From: a virus
Length of the DNA stretch: 64,000 nt
Direction: 5' to 3' (one strand)
Virus record (IMG/VR): IMGVR_UViG_3300042892_000474
Location: 42,075 to 106,074 of that record
Shown here: positions 26,650-64,000 of the stretch, piece after piece
Layout: each line of letters starts with the position of its first letter
Numbering within the stretch: the stretch's first letter is position 1
Program-made: the position numbers and the translations under genes
Notes under the pieces: model-generated
Databases searched by the model: none
What the model was told of the DNA's origin: nothing
What the model saw: the letters and a program-made list of their open reading frames with translations, nothing else

Positions 26650-26658
26650 GGATAAAAG

Positions 26659-27657: not shown

Positions 27658-27963
27658 ATGGACACAAAAACTTTAATTAGCGAAGCTAAAGCCCGATTTA
27701 GCCACAACGCTGCCAAATCATATCTAAAAGAAAAGTACGAAACACGATTAATCGTTGCAGAGCAAGGCGGCCTTTGGAGAGCAAACCTTCAAACAATCAA
27801 TTTTTTAAATAATTCTCAATCTAATACGGTCATCTTAGTTGACAGTTTTGAAAATCCGGTTGAGGTAAATCGTACAGAACTTTTAGCTAAACTTAATGAA
27901 ACTTACGAATCTATAATGCGTGAGTGGCTAAATGAATGGGCAGAGCTAGAGAAAAAACGATGA
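27658..27963 (+). CDS. Hypothetical protein (101 aa), loosely resembling DUF4376-type tail-associated proteins
   Basis: Strong RBS; GGLWRAN...LVDSFENPVEVNRTELL pattern. The family resemblance is weak. Confidence 0.55.
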   Translation: MDTKTLISEAKARFSHNAAKSYLKEKYETRLIVAEQGGLWRANLQTINFLNNSQSNTVILVDSFENPVEVNRTELLAKLNETYESIMREWLNEWAELEKKR

Positions 27964-28769
27964 GTAGAGGCGCACTACTCTTTGCGTTTAACTCTCCCAA
28001 ATACGATTACTACGCTATGGCGGAGTACACTGCAAAGAGAATCAATCATTTTTTAGGACTTCCGGTAACAATTGTTACTGATGAATCCAGCATACCAAAT
28101 AATTCCAAATACAAGTTTGACAACACTATTGTTGTAGAACCGGACAAGAACAACATCCGAGACTATGTAGTTTGGATTAACAAAGGTCGATATCAAGCAT
28201 ATGACCTAAGTCCATATGATGAAACACTATTATTGGACACCGACTACGTAGTAAATAGTGACCGCTTACTAAGCACATTTGACATTTGTGATGATTTTTG
28301 TTGTCATGATACTACTTCATTTCTAATGCACCCAAAAGCACCTCAAGAAATATTAAGTGCGTATAGCTTTAAAACACTGTGGGCTACAGTCATAACATTT
28401 AAAAAAACTCAAAGAGCAAAACAAATCTTTGAATGCTTAGAAATGGTTCAAAAAAATTACGAGCATTACGCAAACATTCATAGTTTCATTGCCGGAGTAT
28501 ACCGCAATGATTACGCATTGACATTGGCCTTGCGTATTGCTAATGGGCATCTAAACATTAATTCAGACATTATTCCCTGGAATCTATTACACGTTGGTAA
28601 AAATACTTCAGTATACGCAGAAAGCACAGATGAATTCAATACAGAGTATACCGTAATGTTTGACAATTGGCAACGAGGTAAAATTCGTAAAGAATATATC
28701 AATATCAAAGATACAGACTTTCACGTAATGAATAAAGAAAACTTTTTGGAGTTAATTAAAAATGGATAA
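27960..28769 (+). CDS. GT-A fold glycosyltransferase (GT8-like)
   Basis: SPYDETLLLDTD DxD motif; probable start is the ATG at 27960 (ATGA overlap) rather than 27936. Confidence 0.75.
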   Translation: MSRGALLFAFNSPKYDYYAMAEYTAKRINHFLGLPVTIVTDESSIPNNSKYKFDNTIVVEPDKNNIRDYVVWINKGRYQAYDLSPYDETLLLDTDYVVNSDRLLSTFDICDDFCCHDTTSFLMHPKAPQEILSAYSFKTLWATVITFKKTQRAKQIFECLEMVQKNYEHYANIHSFIAGVYRNDYALTLALRIANGHLNINSDIIPWNLLHVGKNTSVYAESTDEFNTEYTVMFDNWQRGKIRKEYINIKDTDFHVMNKENFLELIKNG

Positions 28770-29565
28770 AGGTTTTGTAATCATTGCCCAGGATGGCGGC
28801 TCATTAGAGACATATCAGAAATGTGCCGATGCATTAGCTAAAAGCATCAAGCGTACTATGCCCGACGCTAAAGTATCCATTATTACTGACAATAAAATAA
28901 AAAACAAATCTTTGTATGATAAAGTTATACCCTTGCCCTACGGAGATCAAGCACCCAAAAGTTATTGGAAATTGAACAATGATTGGCAGGTGTATGATGC
29001 TAGTCCATATGAATACACTATAAAACTAGAAGCAGATATATATCTTCCCAGTTCAATAGACTATTGGTGGGATGCATTGAAGCATAGAGATTTAGTGATA
29101 TCTACTAACATTAGAGACTTTAAACAGGAATTATCCCCGTCCAGAGTATACCGCAGATTCATTGATGATAACAAATTGCCTGATACTTACAACGCAATCA
29201 CTTATTTTAAAAAGTCTGACACGGCAAAGAACTTTTTTGAAGTAGTTAGACACCTATTTGAAAACTGGGCTGAGTTCAGAGCTACATTAAAATGTAGTCC
29301 GTATGAAGAAGCTACTACTGATTGGGTATATGCTTTGGCAGCGCACATTGTAGGGGTCGAGAATTGTACACTACCTGATTTTAAAGAAATGAGTATGGTG
29401 CATATGAAAAGGTTAATAAATAACTTACCTACCGAAGACTGGACTGACGCACTAGTTTATGAAATATTGCCACATACATTGCGCATCAATTCATGTCCAC
29501 AGCTTTACCCGTTTCACTATCATGTGAAGACGTTTTCTACTAAAATACTAAAAGCCTATGACTGA
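28762..29565 (+). CDS. GT-A fold glycosyltransferase, paralog of the preceding gene
   Basis: SPYEYTIKLEAD (ExD variant), ITYFKKS, C-terminal HYH. Confidence 0.7.
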   Translation: MDKGFVIIAQDGGSLETYQKCADALAKSIKRTMPDAKVSIITDNKIKNKSLYDKVIPLPYGDQAPKSYWKLNNDWQVYDASPYEYTIKLEADIYLPSSIDYWWDALKHRDLVISTNIRDFKQELSPSRVYRRFIDDNKLPDTYNAITYFKKSDTAKNFFEVVRHLFENWAEFRATLKCSPYEEATTDWVYALAAHIVGVENCTLPDFKEMSMVHMKRLINNLPTEDWTDALVYEILPHTLRINSCPQLYPFHYHVKTFSTKILKAYD

Positions 29566-29914
29566 AACTACACAAGATGATGATATTCTAATTCTTTGGG
29601 AGGCTCCTGTAATACAGGCTCCTGAGTTTCGTTTGTATTATGACGAAGCTACCGGTAAAGTTATTTGCTACACATGCGAAAAACTTGAAGGTAAGTATCT
29701 AGTAATCGATGCTATTACGTATGCACAAGCAAGACCGGACCTTCGAATTATCGACGGGCGTATATCTACTGCTAGTAATCATGCAATTGTATCTAAGTTA
29801 ATGCCACATCTTACCCAAGGTCAACTATGTGAAGCAGAGGACATCAGTATAGTAGTTTCATCAGAAGGCGACAACATTAATAGATGGAAACTAAACACAT
29901 ATGAGCTTAAATAA
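29558..29914 (+). CDS. Hypothetical protein (118 aa)
   Basis: Overlaps both neighbours; FRLYYDEATGKVI start resembles small tail-associated proteins. Confidence 0.6.
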   Translation: MTETTQDDDILILWEAPVIQAPEFRLYYDEATGKVICYTCEKLEGKYLVIDAITYAQARPDLRIIDGRISTASNHAIVSKLMPHLTQGQLCEAEDISIVVSSEGDNINRWKLNTYELK

Positions 29915-30854
29915 TATAGTTGATGTAGCCGATTTGGACTGCATCTACCTAAGCTATGACGAGCCACAAAAAGAAGAATTTTGGCTAAAAATTAAAAACA
30001 TGGTTCCTTGGGCAAAGCGGGTAGACGGAATCAAGGGTTCAGATGCGGCACACAAAGCTGCCGGCGCCGCATCAGACACTGAGCGGTTCATATTGATTGA
30101 CGGGGACAATATGCCCGATGAATCATTCTTCAATATGCAACTAGACTTTACAGGCAGAGATCCATCATACACCAAAGCACAATTTCGTTGGAAGGCAGTT
30201 AATGCTATCAACGGATTGCGTTATGGTAATGGTGGCATGAGTTCTTGGACAAAGACTTATGTTGCTAACATGAAGACACATGAAAATCAAAAAGACGGAG
30301 ATGCGGCTCGTATTGCTGACTTCTGTTTAGATAGCAAAGATAACTTGTATTGGGCAATGTATGATTGTTACAGCACAACATACCCCAATCATACTCCGTT
30401 TCAAGCTTGGAGAGCAGGCTTTAGAGAAGGAGTCAAGATGTGTCTTAACAAAGGTGAAGTTCCTTCAGTAGATGAGTTTAAAGAAACAGTTGCTAGTCGC
30501 AATTTGAACAACTTGACTATTTGGCAGAACGTAGGTGCGGATGTAGAGAACGGCATGTGGGCTATCTACGGTGCTAGACTCGGTACATACATGACTCTCT
30601 TAACTGATTGGGACGCACATAATGTTCAATGGTTTGACAATTACACGGTGTTATGGGAAGAACATATTAACCGAGATCCTGAACGTGAAGCAACATTGTT
30701 AGGCGCGGCATTACATGACAAGTTAGGTTTGCCAATGTGTACGCTAGGTAAAGAACAAAGTAAGTTCTTTAAGCGTCATTATCAAACAGACTATCATAAT
30801 CAAGGCCCGTTAGTCACTGAGATGGAAGTTATTCGAAAAATTGAAGGATGGTAA
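29901..30854 (+). CDS. GT-A (GT2-like) glycosyltransferase
   Basis: DCIYLSYDEP, TERFILIDGD (DxD), NGLRYGNGG, AWRAGFREGVK. Confidence 0.7.
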   Translation: MSLNNIVDVADLDCIYLSYDEPQKEEFWLKIKNMVPWAKRVDGIKGSDAAHKAAGAASDTERFILIDGDNMPDESFFNMQLDFTGRDPSYTKAQFRWKAVNAINGLRYGNGGMSSWTKTYVANMKTHENQKDGDAARIADFCLDSKDNLYWAMYDCYSTTYPNHTPFQAWRAGFREGVKMCLNKGEVPSVDEFKETVASRNLNNLTIWQNVGADVENGMWAIYGARLGTYMTLLTDWDAHNVQWFDNYTVLWEEHINRDPEREATLLGAALHDKLGLPMCTLGKEQSKFFKRHYQTDYHNQGPLVTEMEVIRKIEGW

Positions 30855-33489: not shown

Positions 33490-33492
33490 TCA

Positions 33493-34764
33493 ATGGATAA
33501 CGTAACAGTAGAGAACCTGGTTAAGCACGGAAAACATTTCTGTGTATTGCCCTGGGTTCATTTTCACAGTTGGCCTGACGGTCGAGTAATGCCTTGCTGT
33601 ATTGCAGATAGCAATATGCCTGTTGCAGACTTAAAAGATGGTGAATCAATCATCAACATGATGAATAGTAGTGATTATAAGAAATTGCGCACTGCTATGA
33701 TGAATGATGAACCGGTCGAAGCATGTAAGCGTTGCTATGACTTAGAACTAATGGGTACTTGGACAATGCGCCAGTCTCATAATAAGCGCAAGGGCCTAGA
33801 GTACGTAAACTACATTGCAGAAAATACAATGGAAGACGGAAGCCTCATTGACTTTGAAATGAAGTACATGGACTTGCGTTTTAGTAGTATCTGTAATATG
33901 AAGTGCAGAAGCTGTGGTCCAGGATGTTCAAGTCAATGGGCACAAGAGTTTGTCGACCGTGTTGGTATGGACAACTATGAGAAATACTTCAAGACCACTA
34001 AGATTGTTATTAACTCAGCAGAAGAAATGGGATTCATGGCTAAACTTAAGCCATATCTCAAAGATGTAACAGAAGTCTATTTTGCAGGTGGCGAGATTAT
34101 CATTACTCCTGAGCACTATGAATGCTTAGACTATTGGATTGAAAACGGATTAACGGATCAAGTTGAATTGACATATACTACAAACTTTAGTAGCTTGAAG
34201 TATAAAAAAGACATTGACTTGATTGCGTATTGGAAGAAATTCCCTAAACTGAAAATTTGGGCATCACTTGACGCACATGGTGATGTAGCTGAATGTATCA
34301 GAAAGGGTACAGATTGGGATCGTATTGTTAGTAATATCAAGTTAGTAAAAGAGCAAGTACCGCATGCTGAATTTCAGATTACTCCAACCATCAGTATTTG
34401 GAATGTGTTTACTTTCCCTGACTTCTTTGATTATATGATCAATGAAGGGTTTATTGATACTAAATCTAGCCCACGCTTTAATTTAGCTACCAACCCCTGG
34501 TATGCTAACATTATGATCCTACCCGCTAGTGTAAAGCGAAGACTCGCTGAATTGTACCGTGTCTATCAGAATCGTTACAAAGATAACATTGATATCTACA
34601 ATGGATTTAAAATGATTATCTATAACTTGACTGTGGGCGATGAGAACAAGGGTGGCATTCAAGAGTTTATCAAGTTCAATGAAGAACTAGATGACTTTAG
34701 GGATGAAAAATTGGAAGAAGTTATTCCAGAACTAAAAGAGGTATTCGATTGGGCAAGAAGCTAA
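33493..34764 (+). CDS. Radical SAM enzyme with N-terminal twitch/SPASM-like domain
   Basis: CNMKCRSC and AGGE; N-terminal FCVLPW...PCC...CKRC. Confidence 0.88.
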   Translation: MDNVTVENLVKHGKHFCVLPWVHFHSWPDGRVMPCCIADSNMPVADLKDGESIINMMNSSDYKKLRTAMMNDEPVEACKRCYDLELMGTWTMRQSHNKRKGLEYVNYIAENTMEDGSLIDFEMKYMDLRFSSICNMKCRSCGPGCSSQWAQEFVDRVGMDNYEKYFKTTKIVINSAEEMGFMAKLKPYLKDVTEVYFAGGEIIITPEHYECLDYWIENGLTDQVELTYTTNFSSLKYKKDIDLIAYWKKFPKLKIWASLDAHGDVAECIRKGTDWDRIVSNIKLVKEQVPHAEFQITPTISIWNVFTFPDFFDYMINEGFIDTKSSPRFNLATNPWYANIMILPASVKRRLAELYRVYQNRYKDNIDIYNGFKMIIYNLTVGDENKGGIQEFIKFNEELDDFRDEKLEEVIPELKEVFDWARS

Positions 34765-35741
34765 TAGCGATTGAGGCTCCCCAGCCCTATCTCGCAATAA
34801 CATGGCAAGTAAACAATTTCTGCAACTATAAGTGCAGTTATTGTAACCCTGGCAACTGGGGAGGCACTGACCGTAACGAAGGTAACTTAGACATATACCT
34901 AAATAACTTAGAAACGATTATCAATCGCTACAAGTCAGCAGGGTATAAGAACTTTAAGTTCTTCTTCAGCGGTGGAGAACCTACAGCTTGGAAGAACTTT
35001 ATTCCTATCTGTGAATGGATTTACGAAAAGTTACCTCGTGCTACTCTTGCAGTTAACACTAACTTGAGTCGTCCACTAGAGTGGTGGAAGAAACACTATC
35101 ATCTATTTGACGATGTAGTGGGTAGCTTTCACATTGAATTCGCAGACAAACAGCGATATGAAGAAAACTCTATGTTCTTATGTGACAAGGTCAACTACCT
35201 TTCTACTAAGATGTTAATGCACGAAGAAAGATTCTGGGAAGTAGTTGACTATGGAAACTATCTTAAGACAGTAATGCCTAATTACTTCTTAGAGTGGACA
35301 CCGTTGTTTGATGAAATGTCAGTAAACACAGGCCCTTGGCACTACAAAGATCCTGCTAAAGAAGCATGGTTACGTGAGCATACAACGGAGATTCAACAAA
35401 CTAAACGTAAGCCGATGAAACGCACTACGTTGACAGTTAGTTATAACAAGTATGAAGATAATTCTACTGAAGTGTGTAACAGCAACGAAGTTATTGTAGC
35501 AGGAAACAACTTCTTTAACGGTTGGAGTTGCAACGTGGGTGATTGTATCTTTATCAATCCCGTAGGCGAGATGAGCCTAGCAAGTTGCGGCATGGGTGGT
35601 TACGTGGGTCATATATTAGATGATATTAATCGTGTAGGCCCAAAACAAATCATATGTGAGAAAGAACACTGTCATTGCGGAACAGATATTATTATTCCTA
35701 AATTTGATGGCGAATGGTTAGAAAAAAATGCAGTTAAATGA
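34749..35741 (+). CDS. Radical SAM enzyme with C-terminal Cys-rich (twitch-like) extension
   Basis: CNYKCSYC and SGGEP; C-terminal C...SC...CEKEHCHC; TTG start with AGAGG upstream. Confidence 0.85.
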   Translation: MGKKLIAIEAPQPYLAITWQVNNFCNYKCSYCNPGNWGGTDRNEGNLDIYLNNLETIINRYKSAGYKNFKFFFSGGEPTAWKNFIPICEWIYEKLPRATLAVNTNLSRPLEWWKKHYHLFDDVVGSFHIEFADKQRYEENSMFLCDKVNYLSTKMLMHEERFWEVVDYGNYLKTVMPNYFLEWTPLFDEMSVNTGPWHYKDPAKEAWLREHTTEIQQTKRKPMKRTTLTVSYNKYEDNSTEVCNSNEVIVAGNNFFNGWSCNVGDCIFINPVGEMSLASCGMGGYVGHILDDINRVGPKQIICEKEHCHCGTDIIIPKFDGEWLEKNAVK

Positions 35742-37068
35742 AAATGATCCGTTAAAAATTGTTTACAGCTGGATTGGACCAAGAGGTCCAATGGTGAACA
35801 CAGAGTTGCCTAACATTATGAGTTACGCTAGTGTGGGTGAAAGCACCGACGCACATGGTAGTAATTTCTTTTGGGCAGATGATATATATTGGCGAGTGTT
35901 TATGCACAACGGTAATCACCCGTTATCTTCTACATTTGGCTTAGAAGAACATGATCCGTTTATATACCCATATACATTAGCTTGGCGTATACAGTTTCAG
36001 AACTATTTCTTGAATGGTGGTGGTTTGTTAGAGTTCAGTCATACTCCTAATCACATAACACATCAAGTCAGAGATCGTAATGGCTTCTTCTTAATTGACT
36101 ATGCACCCGAAGCATGGGTACAAGATGGACAATTACGTGCAATGCATGCCTACTTCGGACATTACAATAGAATTCCAATGGGCAAGGTCATATACATTAC
36201 TGGTTGTATGAACGCAGAACAATTATACAACAACTGGTGTGATCGAAATGGAATCCCCGATGATCCAATGCATCGTATGATAATGATACCTTTCCCTATA
36301 TCACAACATGCATTATCATTACAGTTACAGAACACTCCGGAACCAGTGTACGACACTGACACTGTGCCTGAAAAAGTATTCTTATGCTGGAATCGTAGAT
36401 TTAGACCTCACCGTACACATCTTGCACTAGCATTAGACAAAGCCGGCATCGTTGACCGTAGCTATTATAGCATGAACTTGACTGACCCTGAGATGAACAG
36501 TGTTCATTTTAAGACTACAGTTGACTTATATTCAAACCCTATGCTACAAATAGGTAACAAAGATGTTGAAAACTTCATGGCTAAGTTACCGTTAGTAATT
36601 GACGGAGAGACAGAGATACAAAGAATGTGCGGTGACTTTGATGCAGCCGCTAGACCTTTTTATCAGAACAGCTTAGTTAGTATCATAACTGAAACAAATT
36701 TTGATTGGACTGAACTAACTGCTACAGAAAAGACATGGAAGCCTGCAAAAGAAAAACATCCATTCATTATGGTAGGAACTGCAGGTGCATTGCGTACATT
36801 ACGTGAGTTTGGATTTCAAACGTTTGATGACTTCTGGGATGAATCATATGACGAAATCGAAGATCCTAAGCGTAGACTGTTTGAGATTGTGAAAGTTTGT
36901 AAAGAAATTGCTAGCTGGACACCAGAGCAAATACTAGACTTTAAGCGTAAGGTAAAGCCTATAGTAGATCATAACTTTAAGATATTGACTACTAACACTT
37001 CTAAAACGGTAGCAGATAAGATACGTGTAGAAGCCTCTAAACGCTTAAGAGAAGAACCTAAGGATTAA
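35728..37068 (+). CDS. Putative GT-B glycosyltransferase (GT10-like ET...TEK domain), copy 1
   Basis: FLCWNRRFRPHR...SIITET...ATEKTWKP...HPFIMVG...GFQTF...DESYD. Confidence 0.6.
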   Translation: MQLNENDPLKIVYSWIGPRGPMVNTELPNIMSYASVGESTDAHGSNFFWADDIYWRVFMHNGNHPLSSTFGLEEHDPFIYPYTLAWRIQFQNYFLNGGGLLEFSHTPNHITHQVRDRNGFFLIDYAPEAWVQDGQLRAMHAYFGHYNRIPMGKVIYITGCMNAEQLYNNWCDRNGIPDDPMHRMIMIPFPISQHALSLQLQNTPEPVYDTDTVPEKVFLCWNRRFRPHRTHLALALDKAGIVDRSYYSMNLTDPEMNSVHFKTTVDLYSNPMLQIGNKDVENFMAKLPLVIDGETEIQRMCGDFDAAARPFYQNSLVSIITETNFDWTELTATEKTWKPAKEKHPFIMVGTAGALRTLREFGFQTFDDFWDESYDEIEDPKRRLFEIVKVCKEIASWTPEQILDFKRKVKPIVDHNFKILTTNTSKTVADKIRVEASKRLREEPKD

Positions 37069-37069
37069 T

Positions 37070-38050
37070 ATGAAAAAGATTTTAGTATGTGGAGCGGGTG
37101 GATTTATAGGCTCTCACTTAGTAGAGAGATTAAAGAAAGCTGGTCACTACGTAGTAGGTGTGGACTTAAAAGAACCCTTATACAGTAAGTCGCAGGCTGA
37201 TGAATTCTATGTGGTAGATTTAAGAGATCAACAGAATGTAGAGAGCTTATTTCATACAATTAGTTACGATGAAATATATCAATTAGCTGCCGACATGGGC
37301 GGCGCCGGCTACATCTTTACCGGCGAACACGATGCTGATATCATGCATAACAGTGTAATGATTAATTTAAACATATTAGATAATGTTCGTAGAAAGAATA
37401 AAAACGCTAAAATATTCTATAGTTCAAGCGCATGTATGTACCCAGAGCACAATCAACTAGACCCTGACAACCCAGTGTTGTCAGAATCAAGCGCATACCC
37501 TGCAAACCCTGACAGTGAGTACGGTTGGGAAAAGTTATTCAGTGAGCGATTGTATTTGACGTATGCTAAGAACTATGGCATAGAAGTACGTATTGCACGT
37601 TTTCACAATGTATTTGGTCCCTACGGATCTTGGAATAATGGCAAAGAGAAAGCACCTGCGGCTCTTTGCAGAAAAGTAGCAACTGTCGAGCCTGGCGGAA
37701 CAATAGAGATATGGGGTCCGGGCACTCAAACTCGTAGCTTTTTATTCATTGATGAATGTTTAGATGGCATACAGCGTTTGATGGAAAGTGATTTTTCAGA
37801 GCCAGTCAACTTAGGTAGCTCTCGAATGATATCAATTAACAATCTAGTCTATCTAATAGCCGATCTTGTTGGTAAAAAAGTTCATATTAAAAATATACCC
37901 GGGCCAATGGGAGTTATGGGTCGTACTAGTGATAACACATTGATACGTGAAAAATTAAATTGGGCTCCTACAGAATCGTTAGAAGTAGGTATACATAAAA
38001 CATATAAATGGATTGTTGAACAGATAGAATGCGGAACCGATGATAAATGA
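37070..38050 (+). CDS. NAD-dependent epimerase, GDP-mannose 3,5-epimerase-like
   Basis: GAGGFIG, LAADMGG, SSSACMYP, YGWEK, KEKAPAALCRK are hallmark GME motifs. Confidence 0.88.
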   Translation: MKKILVCGAGGFIGSHLVERLKKAGHYVVGVDLKEPLYSKSQADEFYVVDLRDQQNVESLFHTISYDEIYQLAADMGGAGYIFTGEHDADIMHNSVMINLNILDNVRRKNKNAKIFYSSSACMYPEHNQLDPDNPVLSESSAYPANPDSEYGWEKLFSERLYLTYAKNYGIEVRIARFHNVFGPYGSWNNGKEKAPAALCRKVATVEPGGTIEIWGPGTQTRSFLFIDECLDGIQRLMESDFSEPVNLGSSRMISINNLVYLIADLVGKKVHIKNIPGPMGVMGRTSDNTLIREKLNWAPTESLEVGIHKTYKWIVEQIECGTDDK

Positions 38051-39126
38051 CCCGCGTATATGTGTTACAAGTATTCCCTGAGACGGGAGTTGAATGGTAT
38101 ACTGATATCATTAAGGATATAAAATTAAAAAATCCTGATTATATTACCGTAATATCATTGGGCGAAATTAATGTAGAACTAATTTTTGATAATTTGTTCA
38201 ACCTAATCGAAAATTGGCTCATAGAAAATAAGAAATACATGTACGTATTGTGGGCCGGCCCCGACAAAGAGATAAGACCCTATATACACGGGGTCAATAC
38301 GTTAGGCAGTGCATATGGTAATTTAGCATGTGTTGAGGGCACTATAATTGATTACGGTGACGTAAACGTGTTTGAAACAAGCAATAAGCTATTCACTTCA
38401 TATAACAACAATCCAAAGTATGAACGTAAATTGTTTGTAGATTTACTAGTAAACAATGACTTAATCAATGATGGTATCGTCACATACAGATATCCAGACT
38501 TGCGCACTAATCCTATGTACGATTGGAAGTATCATGATGGTTCAGTATTGTCAGACGAACCTGATTTTCAATTAAACTCTAATCAAACTTTCAGTGCTGG
38601 ACGTCTACCAAAAAGCTATTTCACTGGCTTTATTGATATAGTAGCAGAAACTGACTATAGAAATGATTTCTTTGTGCCCACTGAAAAAACGGCTAAACCC
38701 TGGGGCGCATTAAAGCCTTACTTAGTGATATCTAGTATGAATTATCATAAGTGGTTGTATTCAGAATACGGTATCGAAATGTATGACGAATTGTTTGACT
38801 ACAACTTTGACAGTATGCTCACTGTCGAGGAACGCATACAGGGCATAATAGACAACTTGCTAAGATTAAAAGCACTATTTAATAGTGATCCAAGTGCAAA
38901 GTTTAAGATGTATGAACAAATTAAATCAAAATTAAAACACAATAGGAACATGGCTTTGCAGATGTTTAAAACATTACAAGACAAAGATAAATTAATTCCA
39001 GAGTGTTTAAAATTCATAACTACAGAAAATGATTATGAATTATTAGGAGAAGTGTATAATAACAAGGGTCATTTGCATTTCATCACTAATAAAGAATGGC
39101 ATTTACGCCCAAGATTAGGTATATAA
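38047..39126 (+). CDS. Putative GT10-like glycosyltransferase, copy 2
   Basis: FIDIVAET...PTEKTAKP...KPYL...YDELFDYNFD. Confidence 0.58.
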   Translation: MTRVYVLQVFPETGVEWYTDIIKDIKLKNPDYITVISLGEINVELIFDNLFNLIENWLIENKKYMYVLWAGPDKEIRPYIHGVNTLGSAYGNLACVEGTIIDYGDVNVFETSNKLFTSYNNNPKYERKLFVDLLVNNDLINDGIVTYRYPDLRTNPMYDWKYHDGSVLSDEPDFQLNSNQTFSAGRLPKSYFTGFIDIVAETDYRNDFFVPTEKTAKPWGALKPYLVISSMNYHKWLYSEYGIEMYDELFDYNFDSMLTVEERIQGIIDNLLRLKALFNSDPSAKFKMYEQIKSKLKHNRNMALQMFKTLQDKDKLIPECLKFITTENDYELLGEVYNNKGHLHFITNKEWHLRPRLGI

Positions 39127-39127
39127 C

Positions 39128-45793: not shown

Positions 45794-45809
45794 TAAATTT
45801 AAATGACTG

Positions 45810-45834
45810 TACCTAAACAAATAAATATTAGGTA
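45810..45834 (+). promoter_or_regulatory. Late promoter core ATAAATA (45821-45827) enclosed by inverted repeat TACCTAA/TTAGGTA
   Basis: Read directly from the sequence; GAGGT RBS and the ATG at 45850 follow. Confidence 0.55.
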
Positions 45835-45849
45835 TACATGAGGTATTAA

Positions 45850-49014: not shown

Positions 49015-49026
49015 TGTCCATATGTG

Positions 49027-49055
49027 TTGTACTACTTGTAACAGAGTAGTATAAT
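49027..49055 (+). promoter_or_regulatory. Sigma70-type promoter TTGTAC-N17-TATAAT with an overlapping palindrome
   Basis: -35 at 49027-49032, -10 at 49050-49055, 17-nt spacer; TACTACT (49030-49036) / AGTAGTA (49045-49051); AGGAG RBS at 49065-49069. Confidence 0.6.
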
Positions 49056-49075
49056 ATAGAAAATAGGAGCACATT

Positions 49076-51927: not shown

Positions 51928-52903
51928 GAACGAATGGGATCCTTTGCTATCAGTTATAGTAGGAGTAGCCGACGATGCTAGAGTTCCTATTGTAGATCCT
52001 AGTTTACGAATGGTAAACTATGCTGATGTAAAGAAAATATATAATATTCCAAACGCGGGCCTATACCCAGAACAAGTTATCAATGAGGCTAATGAAGATT
52101 TAGATTTATTCAGCAAATTCTTAGAGTCATGTAATGTTAGAGTACACAGACCAGATAGGTCTGTAGTGCCTAGCTATTATAACTATTGCCCACGTGATAG
52201 TGTATTGATACACGATGATAAAGTTATAGCAACGCCCATGCCTTTGCGTAGTAGACAAGACGAGTATAAAGCACTATTGCCAGTGTTACAAAACTATAGC
52301 GATGTACTAGTACCTAGGTTTCCTAGAGATAGTAGCTTATACAATAGCGAGTGTTTAGGTAACCCGGACATTCTAGCATTGACTGAAACCGAACCAGCAT
52401 TTGATGCGGCAAACATACTTAGAAGCAACGATGATTTGTTTTATCTTGTAAGTAATAGCGGAAACAAAAGCGGTGCTGAACTATTACAGCTTGCACACCC
52501 AGATAAGAAAGTACATACTATCGAAGGCGTGTACAGTTATATGCACCTTGACAGCACGATTGCATTACTACGTGAGGGATTGATGTTATTGAATCCTGCA
52601 CGTATCAAGTCAGTAGAACAACTACCTAAGCCACTACAATCGTGGGATGTTATTTGGGCACCCGAACCAGTAGATATAGGTCATTACCCTGGCTACTGTA
52701 ATGCAAGTACCTGGGTTAGTGTGAACTTATTCAGCGTTAATCCTAACCTTGCTGTAGTAGAAGCACACCAAGAACCGTTACGAATAGAATTAGAAAAGCA
52801 TAAGATTGATGTACAGATGATGCCTATGCGTCACGCACGTACATTGGGAGGCTGCTTCCATTGTGTAACTTTAGACATAGAAAGGAATCACAATGGCAAA
52901 TAA
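51917..52903 (+). CDS. Amidinotransferase (StrB1 / glycine amidinotransferase family)
   Basis: NEWDPL, CPRD, FDAAN, HLDST, GGCFHCVT catalytic Asp/His/Cys motifs. Confidence 0.9.
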   Translation: MLSKNEWDPLLSVIVGVADDARVPIVDPSLRMVNYADVKKIYNIPNAGLYPEQVINEANEDLDLFSKFLESCNVRVHRPDRSVVPSYYNYCPRDSVLIHDDKVIATPMPLRSRQDEYKALLPVLQNYSDVLVPRFPRDSSLYNSECLGNPDILALTETEPAFDAANILRSNDDLFYLVSNSGNKSGAELLQLAHPDKKVHTIEGVYSYMHLDSTIALLREGLMLLNPARIKSVEQLPKPLQSWDVIWAPEPVDIGHYPGYCNASTWVSVNLFSVNPNLAVVEAHQEPLRIELEKHKIDVQMMPMRHARTLGGCFHCVTLDIERNHNGK

Positions 52904-54677
52904 ATGGACAAGAGGACACATAAGTAGATTCTGGAATACAGATGATGTAAAGAAGTTTGATTATGTTAGACAACCTTTAATGGATTCTGAACTTGAAGAA
53001 TGGAAAGCTAAAGGCTATGACTATGTAAAAAGTTTTTCAGGGTCTATGTATGATAGTCGTAATCCTATGCCTGAATGGGTTAATAGGTTTGGCAACATAT
53101 TCGACTTTAAAAACATGACGTATAATTTCTACAAAATGCAACAATTAGAAATTATGCCAACGCACGTAGACCATTTTCAAACCTATATGAGATTGTTCAA
53201 TGTAGAGTATGAAAATGCAGTTAGAATTTTAGTAATGTTAGATGATTGGAAGCCTGGCCATTACTTAGAAGTAGATGGAGTAGGTATAGTTAATTGGGTA
53301 GCCGGCGATTATTTTATGTGGGACAGTGACGTTCCGCATGCAGCCAGTAATATAGGGATTGAAGATAGATACACCCTACAAATTACAGGCACTAGAATTA
53401 ATTCAGAAGATGTATATAAGCATGTGCATTGGTATAATGTTCCTGGGTTAGTAACAAAGAAAGAATCATTGTTCAGTCCTGAAATGACTGAAATGAAAAA
53501 GCGCATGAATAAAAATTCTCCGTACTACATTTATATGTACAACAGAGAGTTACCAGATTTAGAAACTATCAATCACAGCGCAGAAGATACAGCCTATTTA
53601 AATGATAATGGATTAGAAATCTATCTGTATGAGCCGTTGTGTTCGTATCGCAAGAATGACCAACAAATGTATCCTCCGCATGGATCTAAGCATTCATTAA
53701 TTTTCTATTCTGAGTTCCACTATGATCATGTGCAGAAAACAGATGACATGCGGGCAGTAGAATTAGACAGTATTGTAGAATACATTGACAGAAACAAATT
53801 AACAAATGTCACAGTGAAAACCTGTGACTATAACATAGAAAAGTTTTACACTCATTACCTATCCAAAATGAAATTGGAAGCTGATGATTTGTTTGTAAAG
53901 TATTTTGACACTAATGAATTTGAGAATTTATCTAGTGAAGATGAATTCATGGGAAATTTTAGCAAACGGTTTATATCAATGAACTGGAGATATGCCCCGC
54001 ATAGACAATTAGTGGCAGCGTATTTGGCTAGCTACAGCGATACTAGTTACTTAACATGGTATTTTAAAGCAGACATGAGTATAGTCAGTGTAGAACCTTG
54101 GTATAGTATACACGATTGGTTGAGAAAAAATCCAGAAGTTTTTCAAAAGATGATAAAGGGGTTTAACCAATTAAATCTACGTTCACCGTGGAACATCGAT
54201 TTGAATGTGAAAGAACACACTCTTATCAATGACAAATACTTTAAAAAGATGTTCCCGACAGGTGTTATCTATGATCATAAAAAAGAAAAGTTTGGTGATA
54301 ACCAAGACAGATTAAAATCAACATACGCTGATGTATTCTTAGATGTAGTCAATGAATCTCGGTTTGCACAACCTACAAGTAACTACAGCGAAAAAGTATA
54401 TAGAGCTATGTTCTATAAAAAGCCTTTTATTATGGTTGGGCCACCACACACATTGCATTATTTAAAAGAACAAGGCTTTGAAACTTTTAGTGAGTTTTGG
54501 GATGAGTCATATGATGCAATGGAAGATCATGAGTCTAGGTTATTTGCTATATTCAAACTGATTGATTCTATCAACAACATGCCCATTTCAAAACTGAAAG
54601 ACATGTATACACAAATGTTACCTATTGTAGAACACAATCGTAAACTGTTATTAGAAAAATGCCCTATACGGAATTGA
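52893..54677 (+). CDS. Fusion: Fe(II)/2OG dioxygenase-like cupin + GT10-like domain (copy 7)
   Basis: PTHVD...PHAASN...RYTLQ in the first ~170 aa; PHR...DVVNES...YSEKV...KPFIMVG...DESYD in the C-terminal part. Confidence 0.72.
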   Translation: MANKWTRGHISRFWNTDDVKKFDYVRQPLMDSELEEWKAKGYDYVKSFSGSMYDSRNPMPEWVNRFGNIFDFKNMTYNFYKMQQLEIMPTHVDHFQTYMRLFNVEYENAVRILVMLDDWKPGHYLEVDGVGIVNWVAGDYFMWDSDVPHAASNIGIEDRYTLQITGTRINSEDVYKHVHWYNVPGLVTKKESLFSPEMTEMKKRMNKNSPYYIYMYNRELPDLETINHSAEDTAYLNDNGLEIYLYEPLCSYRKNDQQMYPPHGSKHSLIFYSEFHYDHVQKTDDMRAVELDSIVEYIDRNKLTNVTVKTCDYNIEKFYTHYLSKMKLEADDLFVKYFDTNEFENLSSEDEFMGNFSKRFISMNWRYAPHRQLVAAYLASYSDTSYLTWYFKADMSIVSVEPWYSIHDWLRKNPEVFQKMIKGFNQLNLRSPWNIDLNVKEHTLINDKYFKKMFPTGVIYDHKKEKFGDNQDRLKSTYADVFLDVVNESRFAQPTSNYSEKVYRAMFYKKPFIMVGPPHTLHYLKEQGFETFSEFWDESYDAMEDHESRLFAIFKLIDSINNMPISKLKDMYTQMLPIVEHNRKLLLEKCPIRN

Positions 54678-54678
54678 G

Positions 54679-54721
54679 TTATAAATACATGGGAATTTTA
54701 AAGGATATCCCATGTTTATAA
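54679..54721 (+). promoter_or_regulatory. Perfect T4 late promoter TATAAATA (54680-54687) in the 5' arm of a hairpin covering the downstream start codon
   Basis: ACATGGGA (54687-54694) pairs with TCCCATGT (54708-54715); flanking TTATAA at both ends extends the stem; AAGGA RBS in the loop; ATG at 54712 in the 3' arm. Confidence 0.7.
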
Positions 54722-54810
54722 TCAGATTTTTCAAAAACCTAATCAAAGAATACAAATATCGCAAGCGCATAAAAGAACTACGCAAACGTGATCCATTTAT
54801 CTACAAGTGA
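54712..54810 (+). CDS. 32-aa basic peptide ending DPFIYK, absent from the ORF track
   Basis: MFIIRFFKNLIKEYKYRKRIKELRKRDPFIYK*; has an RBS and ends 5 nt before the carbamoyltransferase ATG. Confidence 0.75.
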   Translation: MFIIRFFKNLIKEYKYRKRIKELRKRDPFIYK

Positions 54811-54815
54811 TTTGA

Positions 54816-62200: not shown

Positions 62201-64000
62201 AGTGCAAACAAAATACGTGCATGATGTAGTCGCCACGTTGAATAACAACAAAAAGAATTGGGAAATACCTAAGGATGTAATTGCAGAGAGTTTTGACTTC
62301 AGTTGGTTACCTCATCCAAAAGACCCTCCTTATATCTATCAGTTTGGTACTCAATGGCAAAAGACAGGTGGCCCTCGTTACGTAGTACCTGAGGCAACAG
62401 ATATTAAGTATATCACTGAATCAGTTGCTAAACGAAAGCAAGTAAAGACTAATTGGGTTATTCCTGCAGGAGTAGATACATCTACCTTCGACTTTAGTTG
62501 GCACCCAGATGAGTTAGCACCACCGTACATTTATCAGTTTGGTACAGTGACTGATGATAAAGATGGCCCTAGATATGTGCCAACAATCAACAACAGCGAA
62601 GTTGTGTTCAAACAACGAATATATAAACCAATAGAAGATGATGCTCCTTTAGTTGAAGATGTTACCATTGGTCAGTATTACATTGAAACAACACTAGAAG
62701 ATTTGGTAAATAAACATCCTAATGAAATATTCTGGGCATTGAATCCAAGCATTGATTATAAGTTATTTGATTTCGCATGGAGACCTGAGATTGTAACAAT
62801 CTCTTGGGAATCTGATTACGTTCACGTATTTGGTTCACCCGACTCACCTCTAACACAAACATACTTTGTTAACGCAAAGTCGTACATGTCAGGAAAGAAA
62901 GATTTTAAGTTTGTCGAAAACATTAAGTTGAGCGAAGAATATCTATCTACCTTGTTCGTAAAACCAGACATGTTCTTTGTTGACCGTGGTAACAGTGAAT
63001 CATCTGAACGTTTTGCATTATTAAAGAGTAAGTTTGGTAATATACAAAAGACCCGATATCTAAACAGTTGGGTTGATACCATCAATCGTTGTATTAATCG
63101 AAGCAGTACAGAACTATGCTGGATATTAAACAGCGAATTAGATTACAGTGATTTTGACTTCCACTACTATCCTAATCCATGGCAGATGAAAATGGTTCAT
63201 GTATTTGGGACCCAGTGGTCACACTGGGGTACAACCTTTATAGTTAACCGTGACACATTTTCTGCTGATACAAAATACATCAAGATTATTGAACACTTGA
63301 GCAATCTTAATTTTGTTAAGGATAGAATTGCTAAAGCTACTAACGTGTTGTATGATGTTTATTACATAGATCACGGTAACTCAGATAACTTGCCTAGCAC
63401 AAATGTTGTTCCGTACGACACTGATTACTTTACTACTTTCAAAAATATATTGTCAAAACTTCCTGAAAAGAAAGAACAATATATTTGGATAGCAAGTACA
63501 GTCTGTGACTATGAAGGTTTTGACTTTACTTATATTTGTGATCCATTTGCACGTGAACAGTTGCATGTATTCCCTAGCGACAGGCAAAAATTTGGTGATA
63601 CATTCTTAGTGAATGTTAACAAGTTGCGTGAGTTGATCGATAACATGGAGTCATTGAAAGATTATGACAAGATAAACTTTAACCAACATCAACGTACAAA
63701 ACGTTTAGCACCTCCTACTATCGTAACTGAGTTTGATACTCATGTTGCAAGCGTAATGCAAGACTTTGACTTCCCTTATGCTGTGTTTGTAACTGAGGAT
63801 AACAAAGACATAGTTGCTGTCGAGGAAGAACCAATGAGTTTATGGAATGTCGAGTCTAAAAACATTCTTATCACTAGCACCGGTGGTACACGCATCGTTG
63901 TTCCTAAAGAAGCAAAACAATATGTTGAGACACAACTATATGACTACCCATACATTAAAACATCGTCACGATTAGCAAGAAGTAATCCTTTAGACATTGT
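56295..64000 (+). CDS. Giant repeat protein (>2568 aa, 3' truncated): degenerate GT-A-like domains flanking 30 FDFSW-x-P repeats; absent from the ORF track
   Basis: ATG directly follows the TAA of the carbamoyltransferase. Manual translation (MLRDVFYYGKKP...RSNPLDI) found no in-frame stop up to base 64000. Confidence 0.9.
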   Translation, partial: MLRDVFYYGKKPNVHPKEQPAKNLVDARKKATTEHFWVINEFCDYTKFDWNFDFEFLSDGDVWAEEHNNVWPSKHQKDSGTWLCTKKRSDVIVYRCDVEPLKRKNIVSDNWKILENINIEKWDFSWHPDPTDPPFVYKWGSKYAPAELNTCLEYTVEGATDIKYMNTIVELLPNWDCIVEVQKVDQIRWDMSWRPDPMDPPFIYVWGNKYVDGKLKSTLEYHVPNATEKKYMNELVPVLPEWDRWDILHDIDKTSFDFCWRPDPREPDYIYVFGNEQYEGGVMPTVEYRMPLATERKYLYDMKAKLSPHPEKFEHLEKADGIDYSWVPDPTAPPYIYAWGNQWNKPEDKVSIQYVVDGATEYRYMEQRSKRKPSMDNWIVPDNVDTTGFDFSWEPSPADPAYIYEFGTQWQKTGGPRYIVEGATEVKYVEFQKVKALSTTANWSIPTNCDVTGFDFSWHPDSTSPPYTYHFATQWALTGGPIYNMEGATEVKYVEHPSAIALPSKENWEVPSYIDSTQFDFSWHPYVEDQPYVYQFGTQHQKTGGPRYVTPGVIPSSPIKYVDTRIISSVRKPNKNNFAILNNYKIKNFDWSWHPDDTDEPYIYVFGNTQHPAEVMPTIEYAVAGATQVKYVSNVVATLDVDMTNWEVPSDIDTTDFDFTWKPNPKDPAFIYQFGTQWQKTGGPRYVVPDADEVKYVTTHKVKALVSRDHWTVPTNIEVTDFDFSWHPDDTSPPYIYYFATQWALSGGPIYTVPGATEVKYVEDLVARALPDKTNWEIPESVDKELFDYSWHPYVEDEPYIYQFGTQHQKTGGPRYITPGTIASSPIKYIDTRIIRSIRKPSKKNFAILNNYKIKEFDWSWHPDETDEPYIYVFGNNQYPPEIMPTIEYVVPGAKQIKYVYDVIATLGEDKTNWVISSPIDESAFDFSWKPNPKDPPYIYRWGNAYVSNKYKPTVEYHVSDATEIKYMDDLVNVTPEWDRWIIPSNVDVTGFDFSWRPDPLEPNLIWQFGTQWQKTGGPTYTMPDAVDIKYIDFQKVRILPNSTASNWELPKTVDVSNFDFSWHPDDTSPPYIYHFATQWALTGGPVYTVPGATETKYLEEPNAVALVNKDNWEVPDNIDVDAFDFSWHPYVEDQPYIYQFGTQWQKTGGPRYITPGVIPSSPVKYIDTRILKATRKVSKKNFAILNNYKIKEFDWSWHPDETDEPYIYVFGNTQHPAEIMPTVEYVVTGAKQIKYINDVIAVLDIDMTNWEVPSDTDTSAFDFSWKPNPKDPAFIYQFGTQWQKTGGPRYVVPGADEVKYVTTHQVTALPTKNNWTVPTYVDTTGFDFSWHPDDTSPPYIYHFATQWALTGGPIYTVSGATETKYLEEPSAVALPNKDNWEVPDYVDISDFDFSWHPYVEDQPYVYQFGTQWQKTGGPRYVTPGVIPSSPIKYIDTRILKSKRLPNKKNFAILNNYKIKDFDWAWHPDDTDEPYIYVFGNTQHPAEIMPTVEYVVPGAKQIKYINDIVATLDVDMTCWNIPNNVDITDFDFSWKPNPKDPAFIYEFGTQWQKTGGPRYVVPDATEVKYVTTQHVTALANHDNWTLPANIDVTDFDFSWHPDATSPPYNYHFATQWALSGGPIYKMNGAIATKYMDSPSAKALPNKDNWEIPTDISEIEFDFSWHPYAEDDPYIYQFGTQWQKTGGPRYVTPGAKRSAPVKYIDTRILTAKKLPTKDKFTVLNNLSVASFDWSWHPDETDGEFIYVFGNTQYSAEVMPTIEYRSSPYAEKVKYVNDVKAVLATDLKDWEIPTNIDVSEFDFSWKPNPNDPPYIYQFGTQWQKTGGPKYSVEGATEIKYVEGSTAKSIASKKQWIVPATIDSTQFDFSWHPDETEELYVYQFGTQWQKTGGPKYITTGSTSDTPVKYCADVKARQLPNKKNFNTLIEHEIKEFDYSWHPDDNDKPYIYVFGNNQYSAEVMPTVEYIVPGAVQTKYVHDVVATLNNNKKNWEIPKDVIAESFDFSWLPHPKDPPYIYQFGTQWQKTGGPRYVVPEATDIKYITESVAKRKQVKTNWVIPAGVDTSTFDFSWHPDELAPPYIYQFGTVTDDKDGPRYVPTINNSEVVFKQRIYKPIEDDAPLVEDVTIGQYYIETTLEDLVNKHPNEIFWALNPSIDYKLFDFAWRPEIVTISWESDYVHVFGSPDSPLTQTYFVNAKSYMSGKKDFKFVENIKLSEEYLSTLFVKPDMFFVDRGNSESSERFALLKSKFGNIQKTRYLNSWVDTINRCINRSSTELCWILNSELDYSDFDFHYYPNPWQMKMVHVFGTQWSHWGTTFIVNRDTFSADTKYIKIIEHLSNLNFVKDRIAKATNVLYDVYYIDHGNSDNLPSTNVVPYDTDYFTTFKNILSKLPEKKEQYIWIASTVCDYEGFDFTYICDPFAREQLHVFPSDRQKFGDTFLVNVNKLRELIDNMESLKDYDKINFNQHQRTKRLAPPTIVTEFDTHVASVMQDFDFPYAVFVTEDNKDIVAVEEEPMSLWNVESKNILITSTGGTRIVVPKEAKQYVETQLYDYPYIKTSSRLARSNPLDI
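56620..62600 (+). repeat. 30 tandem coding repeats of 195-210 nt with an 804-nt four-unit higher-order period
   Basis: FDFSW-like anchors at e.g. 57654, 57849, 58059, 58263, 58458 and 59469, 60273, 61077; spacings 195+210+204+195 = 804. Confidence 0.92.

Follow-up and report, generated by a model that had tools for sequence, protein, structure and literature searches.

A tail-fibre-linked island of glycosyltransferase, sugar-tailoring and radical SAM genes in Rak2/GAP32-related jumbo phages: a candidate virion-glycosylation system

Pelagimyophages and cyanomyophages carry the host recognition cluster (HRC), a large variable island in the structural region beside the tail-fibre genes, which in T4-like phages is located between VrlC and gp14 (Zaragoza-Solas et al. 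2020, mSystems, PMC7029224). The HRC contains glycosyltransferases (GTs; GT8 is the commonest), UDP-glucose 6-dehydrogenase and radical SAM (rSAM) cassettes, and differs between close relatives through cassette gain and loss; its function was untested there (PMC7029224). Here, we analysed the final 64 kb of a 106-kb linear contig (IMG/VR virus record IMGVR_UViG_3300042892_000474, positions 42,075 to 106,074; CheckV completeness 26%), hereafter the window, in which an island of at least 36 kb (27658-64000) lies directly 3' of the tail-fibre genes. Coordinates count from window position 1, and o-names give the start of an open reading frame (ORF; e.g., o30848). Viruses that glycosylate their own particles form a second group for comparison. 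In 2023, Freeman et al. reportedly found virus-encoded glycans on the capsid and tail tube of mycobacteriophages, and chlorovirus PBCV-1 glycosylates its capsid (A64R, PDB 2p72).

The gene content supports a phage-encoded, soluble glycan assembly and tailoring line that would need no lipid carrier. The island is linked physically, and probably also in transcription, to the module of fibre and baseplate genes. The fibre-linked position of the island is conserved across the whole phage lineage. The best reading, to which we give a probability of about 0.5, is that the product of the island is attached to a virion protein, most likely a fibre protein; this reading draws on position, promoter-like boxes, predicted solubility and analogy.

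Linkage of the island to the fibre and baseplate module

The island comprises 24 ORFs of at least 100 aa (101 to >2568 aa), all on the plus strand, and one 32-codon micro-ORF. Overlaps were found at 15 of the 23 junctions, gaps of 0-3 nt at four and gaps of 48-138 nt at four, in agreement with a preliminary description of the DNA, which had reported about 25 co-oriented, mostly overlapping genes after the fibre genes. Because the window ends where the contig ends, the island is truncated at 64000. The baseplate wedge protein (1755-5120) shares 32-34% identity with those of Rak2/GAP32/Atu_ph07/Phosso-type jumbo myoviruses and 69-92% with those of five uncultured relatives, three of which are complete or nearly so (335-364 kb). 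Judged by sequence, the host genome of the island is that of a Rak2/GAP32/Atu_ph07-related jumbo phage of about 360 kb. Lake and freshwater metagenomes from at least 17 studies (2020-2025) contained near-identical phage DNA.

An IMG/VR scan with the GT-B family of the island returned 80 loci, which keep the order o26659, o27658, two GT8-like genes, o29558, o29901, rSAM genes, GT-B genes, epimerase and so on. In four relatives (G001-G004), the order was baseplate wedge, a giant protein of ~6,300-6,500 aa, o24779, o25432, o26659, the island, carbamoyltransferase and repeat protein. The proposed tail-gene linkage was thus kept in the 80 IMG/VR loci and in the three relatives of 335-364 kb. Within this frame, copy numbers vary: N-terminal-twitch (N-twitch) rSAM genes number three in the window and four to five in G001 and G003, whereas G004 has 11 consecutive ones (L091 5541-19948, G004:C1:54440-68847; 383-521 aa), and GT-B genes were gained or lost between relatives.

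The matches obtained when bacterial genomes were scanned with the N-twitch family were of two kinds, namely copies of the phage block in metagenome-assembled genomes (MAGs) and GT-free operons, which are treated below. The first kind comprised divergent contigs (L104, L110, L113, L122, L123 and L145) that carry the fibre gene, two GT8-like genes, o29901, rSAM genes, carbamoyltransferase and repeat protein. The MAGs that hold them are labelled Legionellales, Verrucomicrobia, Rickettsiales, Haliscomenobacter and Betaproteobacteria, and the contigs are probably phage DNA binned into bacterial MAGs.

The T4 late-promoter consensus TATAAATA was found once in the window against 11 copies expected; for ATAAATA, 11 copies were found and 35 expected. 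Nine of these ATAAATA copies are on the plus strand, and six of the nine fall within intergenic sequence, which totals 587 nt: before o1251, o1755, o24779, o25432, o45850 (45821) and the micro-ORF/carbamoyltransferase pair (54681). By motif, these boxes would fit T4-type late promoters, and the depletion of both motifs fits selection against spurious late promoters. A late-promoter motif shared by the structural genes and the island had been proposed previously; it was recovered at 45821 and 54681, but not before the first gene of the island, where the box is imperfect.

The genome encodes very Ser/Thr-rich fibres, which are candidate acceptors. The fibre-like protein o26659, encoded directly 5' of the island in relatives and in the divergent contigs, is rich in Thr, Ala, Gly, Ser and Asn (T 17%, S 11%). 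A full-length tblastn search with it gave no match among 50,697 GenBank phage records; a weak partial match was seen in ORF355 of Ralstonia phage RsoM2USA, the sole cultured phage with the island core. The neighbouring o25432 matches phrog_14394 (virion structural protein) and always precedes the island in the loci compared. A 6493-aa ORF at 5131-24612 (+) lies between the baseplate wedge and fibre genes (T 11%, S 8%, N 8%); its segments are 37-70% conserved in relatives and its whole length 62% in G003, and RsoM2USA ORF361, a confirmed virion protein, is a much shorter counterpart. Outside the window, G000:C1:8448-17456 (-) encodes a collagen-like fibre of 3002 aa and the form (Gly-X-Ser/Thr)n (G 28%, S 24%, T 14%), and proteins sharing its C-terminal domain have lengths of 287 to 2625 aa in relatives. 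The presence of this fibre alongside the island is uneven among relatives, so it cannot serve as an acceptor test.

RsoM2USA gave the only tblastn match to the GT8-like protein and to o29901 among the 50,697 records, and the GT-B family had no match there in a full-length search. Its minimal core occupies the same place as the island of the window: ORF362 (baseplate wedge), ORF361 (giant protein), ORF355 (fibre; weak similarity to both o25432 and o26659), ORF354 (between ORF355 and the GT8-like pair), ORF353 (GT8-like homologue of o27936), ORF352 (GT8-like; 34% identity to o28762), ORF351 (between ORF352 and ORF350), ORF350 (o29901-like; 39% identity, E 6e-59), ORF349 (N-twitch rSAM; 38% identity) and ORF348 (a second o29901-like, GT2-like gene). 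A second locus contains rSAM ORF202, SGNH-like ORF200 and carbamoyltransferase ORF199 (44% identity to o54816). The RsoM2USA annotation reads 'hypothetical' throughout. Mass spectrometry detected ORF361, ORF359 and ORF356 in virions (PMC8504454), and since these homologues of the upstream genes are found in virions, a fibre acceptor gains support. From position and size only, o24779 would be the counterpart of the virion protein ORF356 (21 kDa, 5' of the fibre gene); tblastn of o24779 against RsoM2USA gave no match. Because a cultured phage carries the minimal core, the question of what is modified is directly testable.

Table 1. Features of the fibre module and the island in the window
Feature	Coordinates	Strand	Evidence
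o24779, 206-aa virion-module protein	24779..25399	+	phrog_11259 E 7e-69; 85-94% identity in relatives; synteny
o25432, tail fibre/spike-like protein	25432..26649	+	C-terminal intramolecular-chaperone domain: Pfam Peptidase_G2 IMC 25.7 bits (cut-off 25)
o26659, island-specific fibre-like protein, candidate acceptor	26659..27609	+	composition and position
o27658, 101-aa conserved protein, first after fibre genes	27658..27963	+	no family match; 61-97% conserved
o27936, GT8-like GT-A glycosyltransferase, paralogue 1	27936..28769	+	invariant DTD (alignment A3)
o28762, GT8-like GT-A glycosyltransferase, paralogue 2	28762..29565	+	invariant EAD; phrog_1903
o29558, 118-aa conserved protein	29558..29914	+	no family match; kept in relatives
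o29901, GT2-like GT-A candidate	29901..30854	+	invariant D-G-D, N-terminal beta-alpha-beta pattern (alignment A5)
o30848, o32260, o33493, three N-twitch rSAM enzymes	30848-32263, 32260-33489, 33493-34764	+	NF033640
o34749, short 330-aa rSAM, core N-terminal	34749..35741	+	Pfam Radical_SAM 29.9 bits
o35728, GT-B glycosyltransferase, family founder	35728..37068	+	ET...TEK...PF motif; AF2 and Foldseek
o37070, GDP-mannose 3,5-epimerase	37070..38050	+	phmmer PDB 2c59 E 2.1e-98, full length
o38047, GT-B paralogue	38047..39126	+	blastp and family alignment
o39128, SGNH-like protein	39128..40003	+	motifs GCSWT ... NxxHPTxxGY
o39996, B12-binding rSAM	39996..41924	+	Pfam B12-binding and Radical_SAM
o41921, tandem double GT-B paralogue	41921..43966	+	residues 112-301 and 462-645 each match o38047
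o43941, second SGNH-like protein	43941..44732	+	motifs GCSFT ... DPH
o44729, GT-B paralogue	44729..45793	+	C-terminal domain recognisable
o45850, three-part fusion	45850..49014	+	NDP-sugar 6-dehydrogenase ~1-380, GT-B ~496-783, HemK/MTS-like methyltransferase ~854-1042
o49076, B12-binding rSAM, class B, generic	49076..51340	+	Pfam and NCBIfam
o51337, half-size DegT/LegC/PseC-like PLP protein, 196 aa	51337..51927	+	SF..K..G.GG lysine motif kept
o51917, amidinotransferase, closest StrB1	51917..52903	+	five-orthologue profile vs PDB
o52893, HxD...H (2-oxoglutarate-oxygenase-like) N-terminus and GT-B fusion	52893..54677	+	GT-B at 468-588
TATAAATA, T4 late-promoter consensus	54680..54687	+	sole copy in window; in 138-nt gap
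Micro-ORF, 32 codons, ends in YRKRIKELRKRDPFIYK before the stop	54712..54810	+	conservation across loci
o54816, NodU/CmcH-family carbamoyltransferase, short form, 492 aa	54816..56294	+	both Pfam domains
o56295, giant protein, >2568 aa, cut by contig end	56295..64000	+	~29 tandem 65-70-aa units

Predicted glycan assembly and tailoring enzymes

No Pfam GT model matched any island protein, and about ten GT-like domains were recognised with graded support (seven GT-B, two GT8-like and one GT2-like). The preliminary count of about ten stands for the GT-B and GT8-like domains and is weakly supported for the GT2-like one. Ten such domains would suit an oligosaccharide product better than a small aminoglycoside.

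All-against-all BLAST and alignment grouped seven GT-B domains (o35728, o38047, o41921 twice, o44729, o45850 and o52893) into one family. The AlphaFold2 (AF2) model of o35728 (pLDDT 91.4) has a GT-B fold, and Foldseek matched it to GT-B enzymes at probability 1.0 (OtsA, VldE, T4 BGT, SdgB and TarM); the VIA Z was 11.9 for the GT47 domain of EXT1, 11.2 for Gtf3 and 10.3-10.5 for alpha-1,3-fucosyltransferases (FucT and FUT9). Its structural neighbours include enzymes that glycosylate proteins directly (Gtf3, SdgB, GtfA, POGLUT and OGT). Among 423 metagenomic homologues, none (0/423) had a Pfam domain, and the family profile (A1) gave nothing meaningful against PDB sequences. The GT-B fold is common to the GT10 fucosyltransferases and GT47 exostosin, and the invariant ...E...(T/S)EK, of which E-K is kept in all seven copies, resembles the YxTEK motif of FucT. 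Unlike those families, however, the island GT-B proteins had no Pfam Glyco_transf_10 or Exostosin match even at E 10, and many other GT-B families were tied with FucT within Z 2. The motif thus recalls GT10, and membership is not established. Since the GDP-mannose 3,5-epimerase gene is adjacent, a GDP-L-sugar donor is plausible for the GT-B family.

The T4 beta- and alpha-glucosyltransferases were also among the structural neighbours of the GT-B model, and all island enzymes are predicted to be soluble, as would suit decoration of phage-genome bases in the manner of T-even glucosylation or of the more elaborate DNA glycans that other phages make. However, T4 BGT and AGT match the model no better than other GT-B enzymes do. 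By position and promoter-like boxes, the island goes with the late structural module, but a DNA-modifying system would be required while the genome replicates. In the relatives, one canonical ThyA (E 1e-104 to 1e-109) and no second ThyA-family hydroxymethylase was found. DNA hypermodification is highly improbable as the role of the island.

The GT8-like families of o27936 and o28762 are related by hhalign (probability 97.8%, E 9e-13), and the ESM Atlas neighbours of o28762 (0.95-0.98) belong to nucleotide-diphospho-sugar transferase, GT8 and Nucleotid_trans clusters; the profiles of both families (A3 and A4) gave nothing meaningful against PDB sequences. The GT2-like candidate o29901 is the best-conserved island protein (mean column identity 83%). 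Its AF2 model was poor (pLDDT 62) and allowed no firm fold call; the top Foldseek rows were all GT-A folds at E 0.1 or worse, with PBCV-1 A64R first, the Atlas GT2 lead scored 0.87, and the profile (A5) gave nothing meaningful against PDB sequences.

Several tailoring enzymes were assigned at the family level. The epimerase of the preliminary description proved to be of the GDP-mannose 3,5-epimerase type (o37070; Pfam Epimerase E 6e-44; the next short-chain dehydrogenase/reductase family in PDB only 1e-28). The dehydrogenase and methyltransferase were located at the N- and C-terminus, respectively, of the fusion o45850 (UDP-glucose dehydrogenase E 6e-19, GDP-mannose dehydrogenase E 1e-15, MTS E 8.5e-18, TIGR03026 E 3e-41), whose parts are separate genes in some relatives. 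For o51917, the single sequence matched nothing in Pfam or NCBIfam, and the orthologue profile matched StrB1 (1bwd) best (E 7.9e-78, residues 4-323), as had been proposed; AGAT (E 2e-45), HsvA and SxtG also matched. C313 in the C-terminal GGCFHC and several His/Asp residues are invariant in its alignment (A10), an observation of conservation only. The carbamoyltransferase o54816, previously placed near TobZ/MoeF5, has both domains common to the NodU/TobZ O-carbamoyltransferases (Carbam_trans_C 163.1 bits and Carbam_trans_N 123.5 bits, both above cut-off; NodU E 2e-37) and lacks the first ~120 positions of the Carbam_trans_N profile.

Other predicted activities were retained in part. The aminotransferase is DegT-like and keeps the lysine motif, but it is only a half-protein (192-196 aa in relatives too) from which the middle of the fold and its C-terminal part are missing; Pfam DegT matched in two stretches (E 1.5e-15), and NCBIfam gave partial LegC/PseC matches. 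In the supposed oxygenase, the N-terminus of o52893, H91, D93 and H149 are invariant, but Pfam Asp_Arg_Hydrox reached only E 0.065 (residues 75-164), and its profile (A9) gave nothing meaningful against PDB sequences. The two SGNH-like proteins have the motifs GCS-x-T, G-x-G-N and (N/D)xxH but no Pfam or PDB profile match, and their family profile (A11) gave nothing meaningful against PDB sequences; a GCS-type ORF of G001 (L084:3524-4273) matched DUF6071 at E 6e-7, and o43941 at E 0.16.

The likeness to aminoglycoside pathways was narrowed. StrB1 of the streptidine branch, which also has an StsC-type aminotransferase, is the best solved relative of o51917, and a DegT-like gene lies directly upstream. 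Unlike those pathways, the island lacks a cyclitol core enzyme (no Pfam domain of 2-deoxy-scyllo-inosose synthase or inositol-phosphate synthase in the 24 proteins), its aminotransferase is half-size, and it stands in a phage tail context with ten GTs.

Among 19-residue windows of all 24 proteins, none exceeded a Kyte-Doolittle value of 1.35 (threshold 1.6), so no transmembrane segment was predicted, and no flippase, polymerase, ABC or polyprenol-phosphate transferase Pfam domain was detected. The absence of a flippase, Wzy and ABC exporter and the solubility of the enzymes, noted earlier, were thus confirmed; the membrane initiating transferase, transporter and polymerase of a Wzx/Wzy or ABC-dependent polysaccharide pathway were not found in the island. 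This bears on the possibility that the targets are nucleotide sugars or O-chain/capsule precursors of the host, which the enzymes would remodel in the cytoplasm, and that the host's export machinery displays the altered glycan, which would block superinfection or keep released virions off lysed cells. Such conversion is the published reading for the HRC with its GT8, UDP-glucose 6-dehydrogenase and rSAM cassettes (PMC7029224), and GT8-like and nucleotide-sugar enzymes are present in the island as well. However, besides the missing membrane components, ten soluble GTs would need lipid-linked intermediates without a membrane anchor, the late-promoter-like boxes and strict fibre-gene linkage point elsewhere, and a late surface change would bring a lytic jumbo phage little gain. 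We consider host-surface conversion quite improbable.

Radical SAM enzymes, micro-ORF and repeat protein

Pfam and NCBIfam confirmed the six rSAM enzymes that had been counted in the island (o30848, o32260, o33493, o34749, o39996 and o49076). A weak match inside o45850 (Pfam Radical_SAM residues 441-516, 22 bits) was left out of this count. The first three were previously thought to be BtrN/NeoN-type twitch enzymes; instead, they belong to NF033640 (317.1, 372.6 and 357.1 bits, respectively; curated cut-off 170), with the auxiliary cluster N-terminal and the domain order reversed (Pfam SPASM at residues 14-82, then Radical_SAM at 124-290), and no BtrN model was among the NCBIfam hits. C14, C33, C74, C77 and the CxxxCxxC core (C129, C133 and C136) are invariant in 14 paralogues. 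NF033640 (N_Twi_rSAM) is a family without an assigned substrate, and the island members occur in tandem arrays of 3 to 11 paralogues. The short o34749 gave weak viperin/MoaA-type matches and is 69-98% identical in relatives. A B12 methylase was upheld at the family level: class-B o39996 matched best the KedN5 C-methyltransferase family NF033712, a sugar C-methylase family (E 1.5e-74, below the curated cut-off).

The GT-free operons of the bacterial scan (L135 9986-17954 and the similar L124, L126, L134, L119 and L138, in Bacteriovoracia/Bdellovibrionota MAGs) contain N-twitch, o34749-like and B12 rSAM genes, including copies 62-63% identical to o49076 in Halobacteriovorax MAGs. Their presence would be explained either by exchange of genes with these phages or by viral DNA that was binned wrongly. 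Their neighbours in Halobacteriovorax (a TPR protein, an outer membrane protein and Lnb_N) gave no substrate clue. Because the same rSAM set occurs in these operons, a sugar substrate of the rSAM enzymes is presumed rather than established.

Alternatively, the island might consist of two modules, in which the GT and nucleotide-sugar genes glycosylate fibres and the rSAM array edits fibre side chains by epimerisation, C-methylation or cross-links, in a proteusin-like manner. In addition to the bacterial operons, the 11 tandem N-twitch paralogues of one relative would suit this arrangement, as would the best scores of o49076 with C-methyltransferase models of ribosomally synthesized and post-translationally modified peptides (RiPPs), the resemblance of the o52893 N-terminus to protein Asp/Asn hydroxylases, and the HemK-like methyltransferase, from a family of protein glutamine methylases. 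These matches are all far below family cut-offs, however, o39996 scores best with a sugar C-methylase family, and the rSAM genes are translationally coupled between GT genes. Thus, a division into two modules seems quite unlikely.

In the 138-nt gap 5' of the carbamoyltransferase gene, the micro-ORF encodes MFIIRFFKNLIKEYKYRKRIKELRKRDPFIYK. It was found in 23 loci and in RsoM2USA (there ...IRKQDPFIYK). Across 20 different DNA versions, none of the residues K, D, P, F, I, Y and K changes, and each codon of D-P-F-I-Y-K is synonymously variable with 0 replacements; in several loci, its stop overlaps the carbamoyltransferase start as ATGA. This strong amino-acid constraint, together with the synonymous variation and the stop/start overlap, indicates that the micro-ORF is translated. 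No NCBIfam match was obtained. The product could be a ribosome-arrest/leader peptide or a modified peptide.

Twitch/SPASM rSAM enzymes are typically peptide maturases, and weak NCBIfam matches to several of these were seen in the island. The product could accordingly be a free glyco-metabolite, or a modified or glycosylated 32-aa peptide (RiPP- or cofactor-like, core ...DPFIYK) matured by the rSAM enzymes. The purifying selection on the micro-ORF, its travelling with the island even in RsoM2USA, the GT-free operons and the natural-product pathways from which enzymes of the StrB1, KedN5 and NodU types are chiefly known speak for this. On the other hand, the micro-ORF adjoins the carbamoyltransferase/SGNH-like module, far from the rSAM array; its coupling to the next gene fits a leader peptide equally well; and no precursor-like ORF was seen in the bacterial rSAM operons, nor a DPFIYK-like micro-ORF in those of Halobacteriovorax. 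Moreover, the island has no exporter, protease or immunity gene and no cyclitol or aminoglycoside core enzyme, and ten GTs far exceed the needs of known glycopeptides and aminoglycosides. We therefore regard a free product or glycopeptide as unlikely.

The last gene encodes the giant o56295, whose repeat unit has the motif FDFSWHPD..PYIY.FG..W..GGP.Y. Neither Pfam (with o56295) nor PDB (with the unit profile, A8) gave a match, and Tandem Repeats Finder detected no DNA-level repeat in the gene. Its 1234-aa homologue in G001 (L084 6610-10314) has a C-terminal domain that hhalign relates to o29901 (97%, E 1e-10). This domain has lost the DxD, and its segment past that position carries the repeat motif FDWNWQPD...HYVF...NGLVYG. 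The presence of an o29901-like domain with the repeat motif supports an origin of the repeat from a GT-A sub-domain. By this route, the repeat looks like an amplified piece of the GT-A fold; hhalign of the repeat unit or of the C-terminus of the window giant against the o29901 family gave nothing, so the link runs via the G001 homologue only.

Proposed function and comparison with known systems

In the reading that we prefer, attachment of a phage-made glycan to virion fibres, the island would be a late-expressed, wholly cytoplasmic assembly and editing line without need of a lipid carrier or exporter. Gene content, predicted solubility, synteny, copy-number variation and the promoter-like boxes were observed; substrates, reaction order, late timing and acceptor are all inferred. 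Host nucleotide sugars would be taken up as substrates and converted, by the epimerase to GDP-L-galactose or GDP-L-gulose and by the NDP-sugar 6-dehydrogenase to a uronic acid, and the KedN5-like B12 rSAM may add a C-methyl group. The ~10 GT domains (two GT8-like, one or two GT2-like and seven GT-B) would then build an oligosaccharide directly on a phage-made macromolecule. The mini-DegT protein and the StrB1-like amidinotransferase would aminate and guanidinylate the chain, which might be further edited by NodU-like O-carbamoylation, HemK-like methylation and SGNH-like acyl editing, and the N-twitch array may perform redox or C-H chemistry on it. The most likely acceptor would be a virion fibre protein, with the Thr/Ser-rich fibre genes at 25432-27609 as candidates and the 6493-aa virion giant and the Gly-X-Ser collagen-like fibre as further possibilities. 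Variable numbers of GT-B and rSAM paralogues could give strain-specific surface chemistry on the host-recognition apparatus.

Virion glycosylation is a putative function, and several points weigh against it. The authors working on comparable pelagimyophage islands favoured host O-chain modification (PMC7029224). The same rSAM set occurs in GT-free operons of Bacteriovoracia MAGs at up to 63% identity, the SGNH, oxygenase and o29901 GT2-like assignments are weak, and the long Gly-X-Ser fibre is unevenly present in relatives. The promoter assignment is by motif, and CTAAATA is the only such box in the gap that precedes o27658. A metatranscriptome library contains short contigs that match across the island with 0-9 differences; they give a weak hint of transcription and are possibly DNA carry-over.

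A bolder extension would see an autonomous, lipid-free glycosylation and editing factory like those of chloroviruses and mimiviruses, with C-H chemistry by arrays of permuted N-twitch rSAM enzymes on a virion-bound guanidino/carbamoyl/C-methyl glycan and the micro-ORF as a metabolite-sensing arrest peptide or peptide primer. We hold it to be doubtful; if true, the rSAM chemistry and the GT-B family would both be new, and the host-recognition fibres of some of the most abundant lake jumbo phages would bear a charged 'designer' glycan. The lineage devotes about one tenth of a 360-kb genome to the island. If the product coats fibres, phages would have a new way to vary or shield the host-recognition apparatus. 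The island would then also be a source of unexplored enzymology: an unassigned rSAM family, of which up to 11 copies stand in one array; a Pfam-less GT-B family of more than 400 members; a branch for guanidino/carbamoyl sugars that does not belong to an antibiotic pathway; and a giant protein of ~29 copies of a GT-derived sub-domain.

Like the HRC, the island lies within the virion structural region adjoining the fibre genes (in the window and G001-G004), combines GTs, nucleotide-sugar enzymes and rSAM cassettes, and varies in copy number (3, 4, 5 and 11 N-twitch genes; GT-B paralogues). The HRC backbone is T4-like, whereas that of the island is Rak2/GAP32-like, and HRC phages are far smaller than the 335-364 kb relatives (one marine genome with 12 rSAM genes has 183 kb). 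Since the island GT-B, GT8-like, GT2-like and N-twitch rSAM proteins had no tblastn match in GenBank cyano- and pelagiphages, the likeness is positional and functional, not by descent. The amidinotransferase, carbamoyltransferase, micro-ORF and repeat-GT2 giant of the island are not reported for the HRC.

The virion glycosylation systems of mycobacteriophages and chloroviruses resemble the island in their soluble, cytoplasmic virus GTs, encoded beside structural genes and acting without a lipid carrier. They differ in their smaller number of GTs (1-6) and in lacking radical SAM chemistry and the transfer of amidino or carbamoyl groups, and their products were seen by mass spectrometry. The searchable literature held nothing relevant on jumbo-phage islands of radical SAM and GT genes, on the N-terminal twitch or on phage amidino- and carbamoyltransferases; a 'moraphage' paper (PMC12619734) was considered as an account of the island and set aside, as it concerns another lineage. 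Tail-fibre-linked glycan islands are already published, and the particular enzyme set of this one is not described in that literature. What the island adds to the known systems is its N-twitch rSAM arrays, a Pfam-less GT-B family, StrB1- and NodU-like enzymes, the micro-ORF, the repeat-GT2 giant and a minimal core in RsoM2USA.

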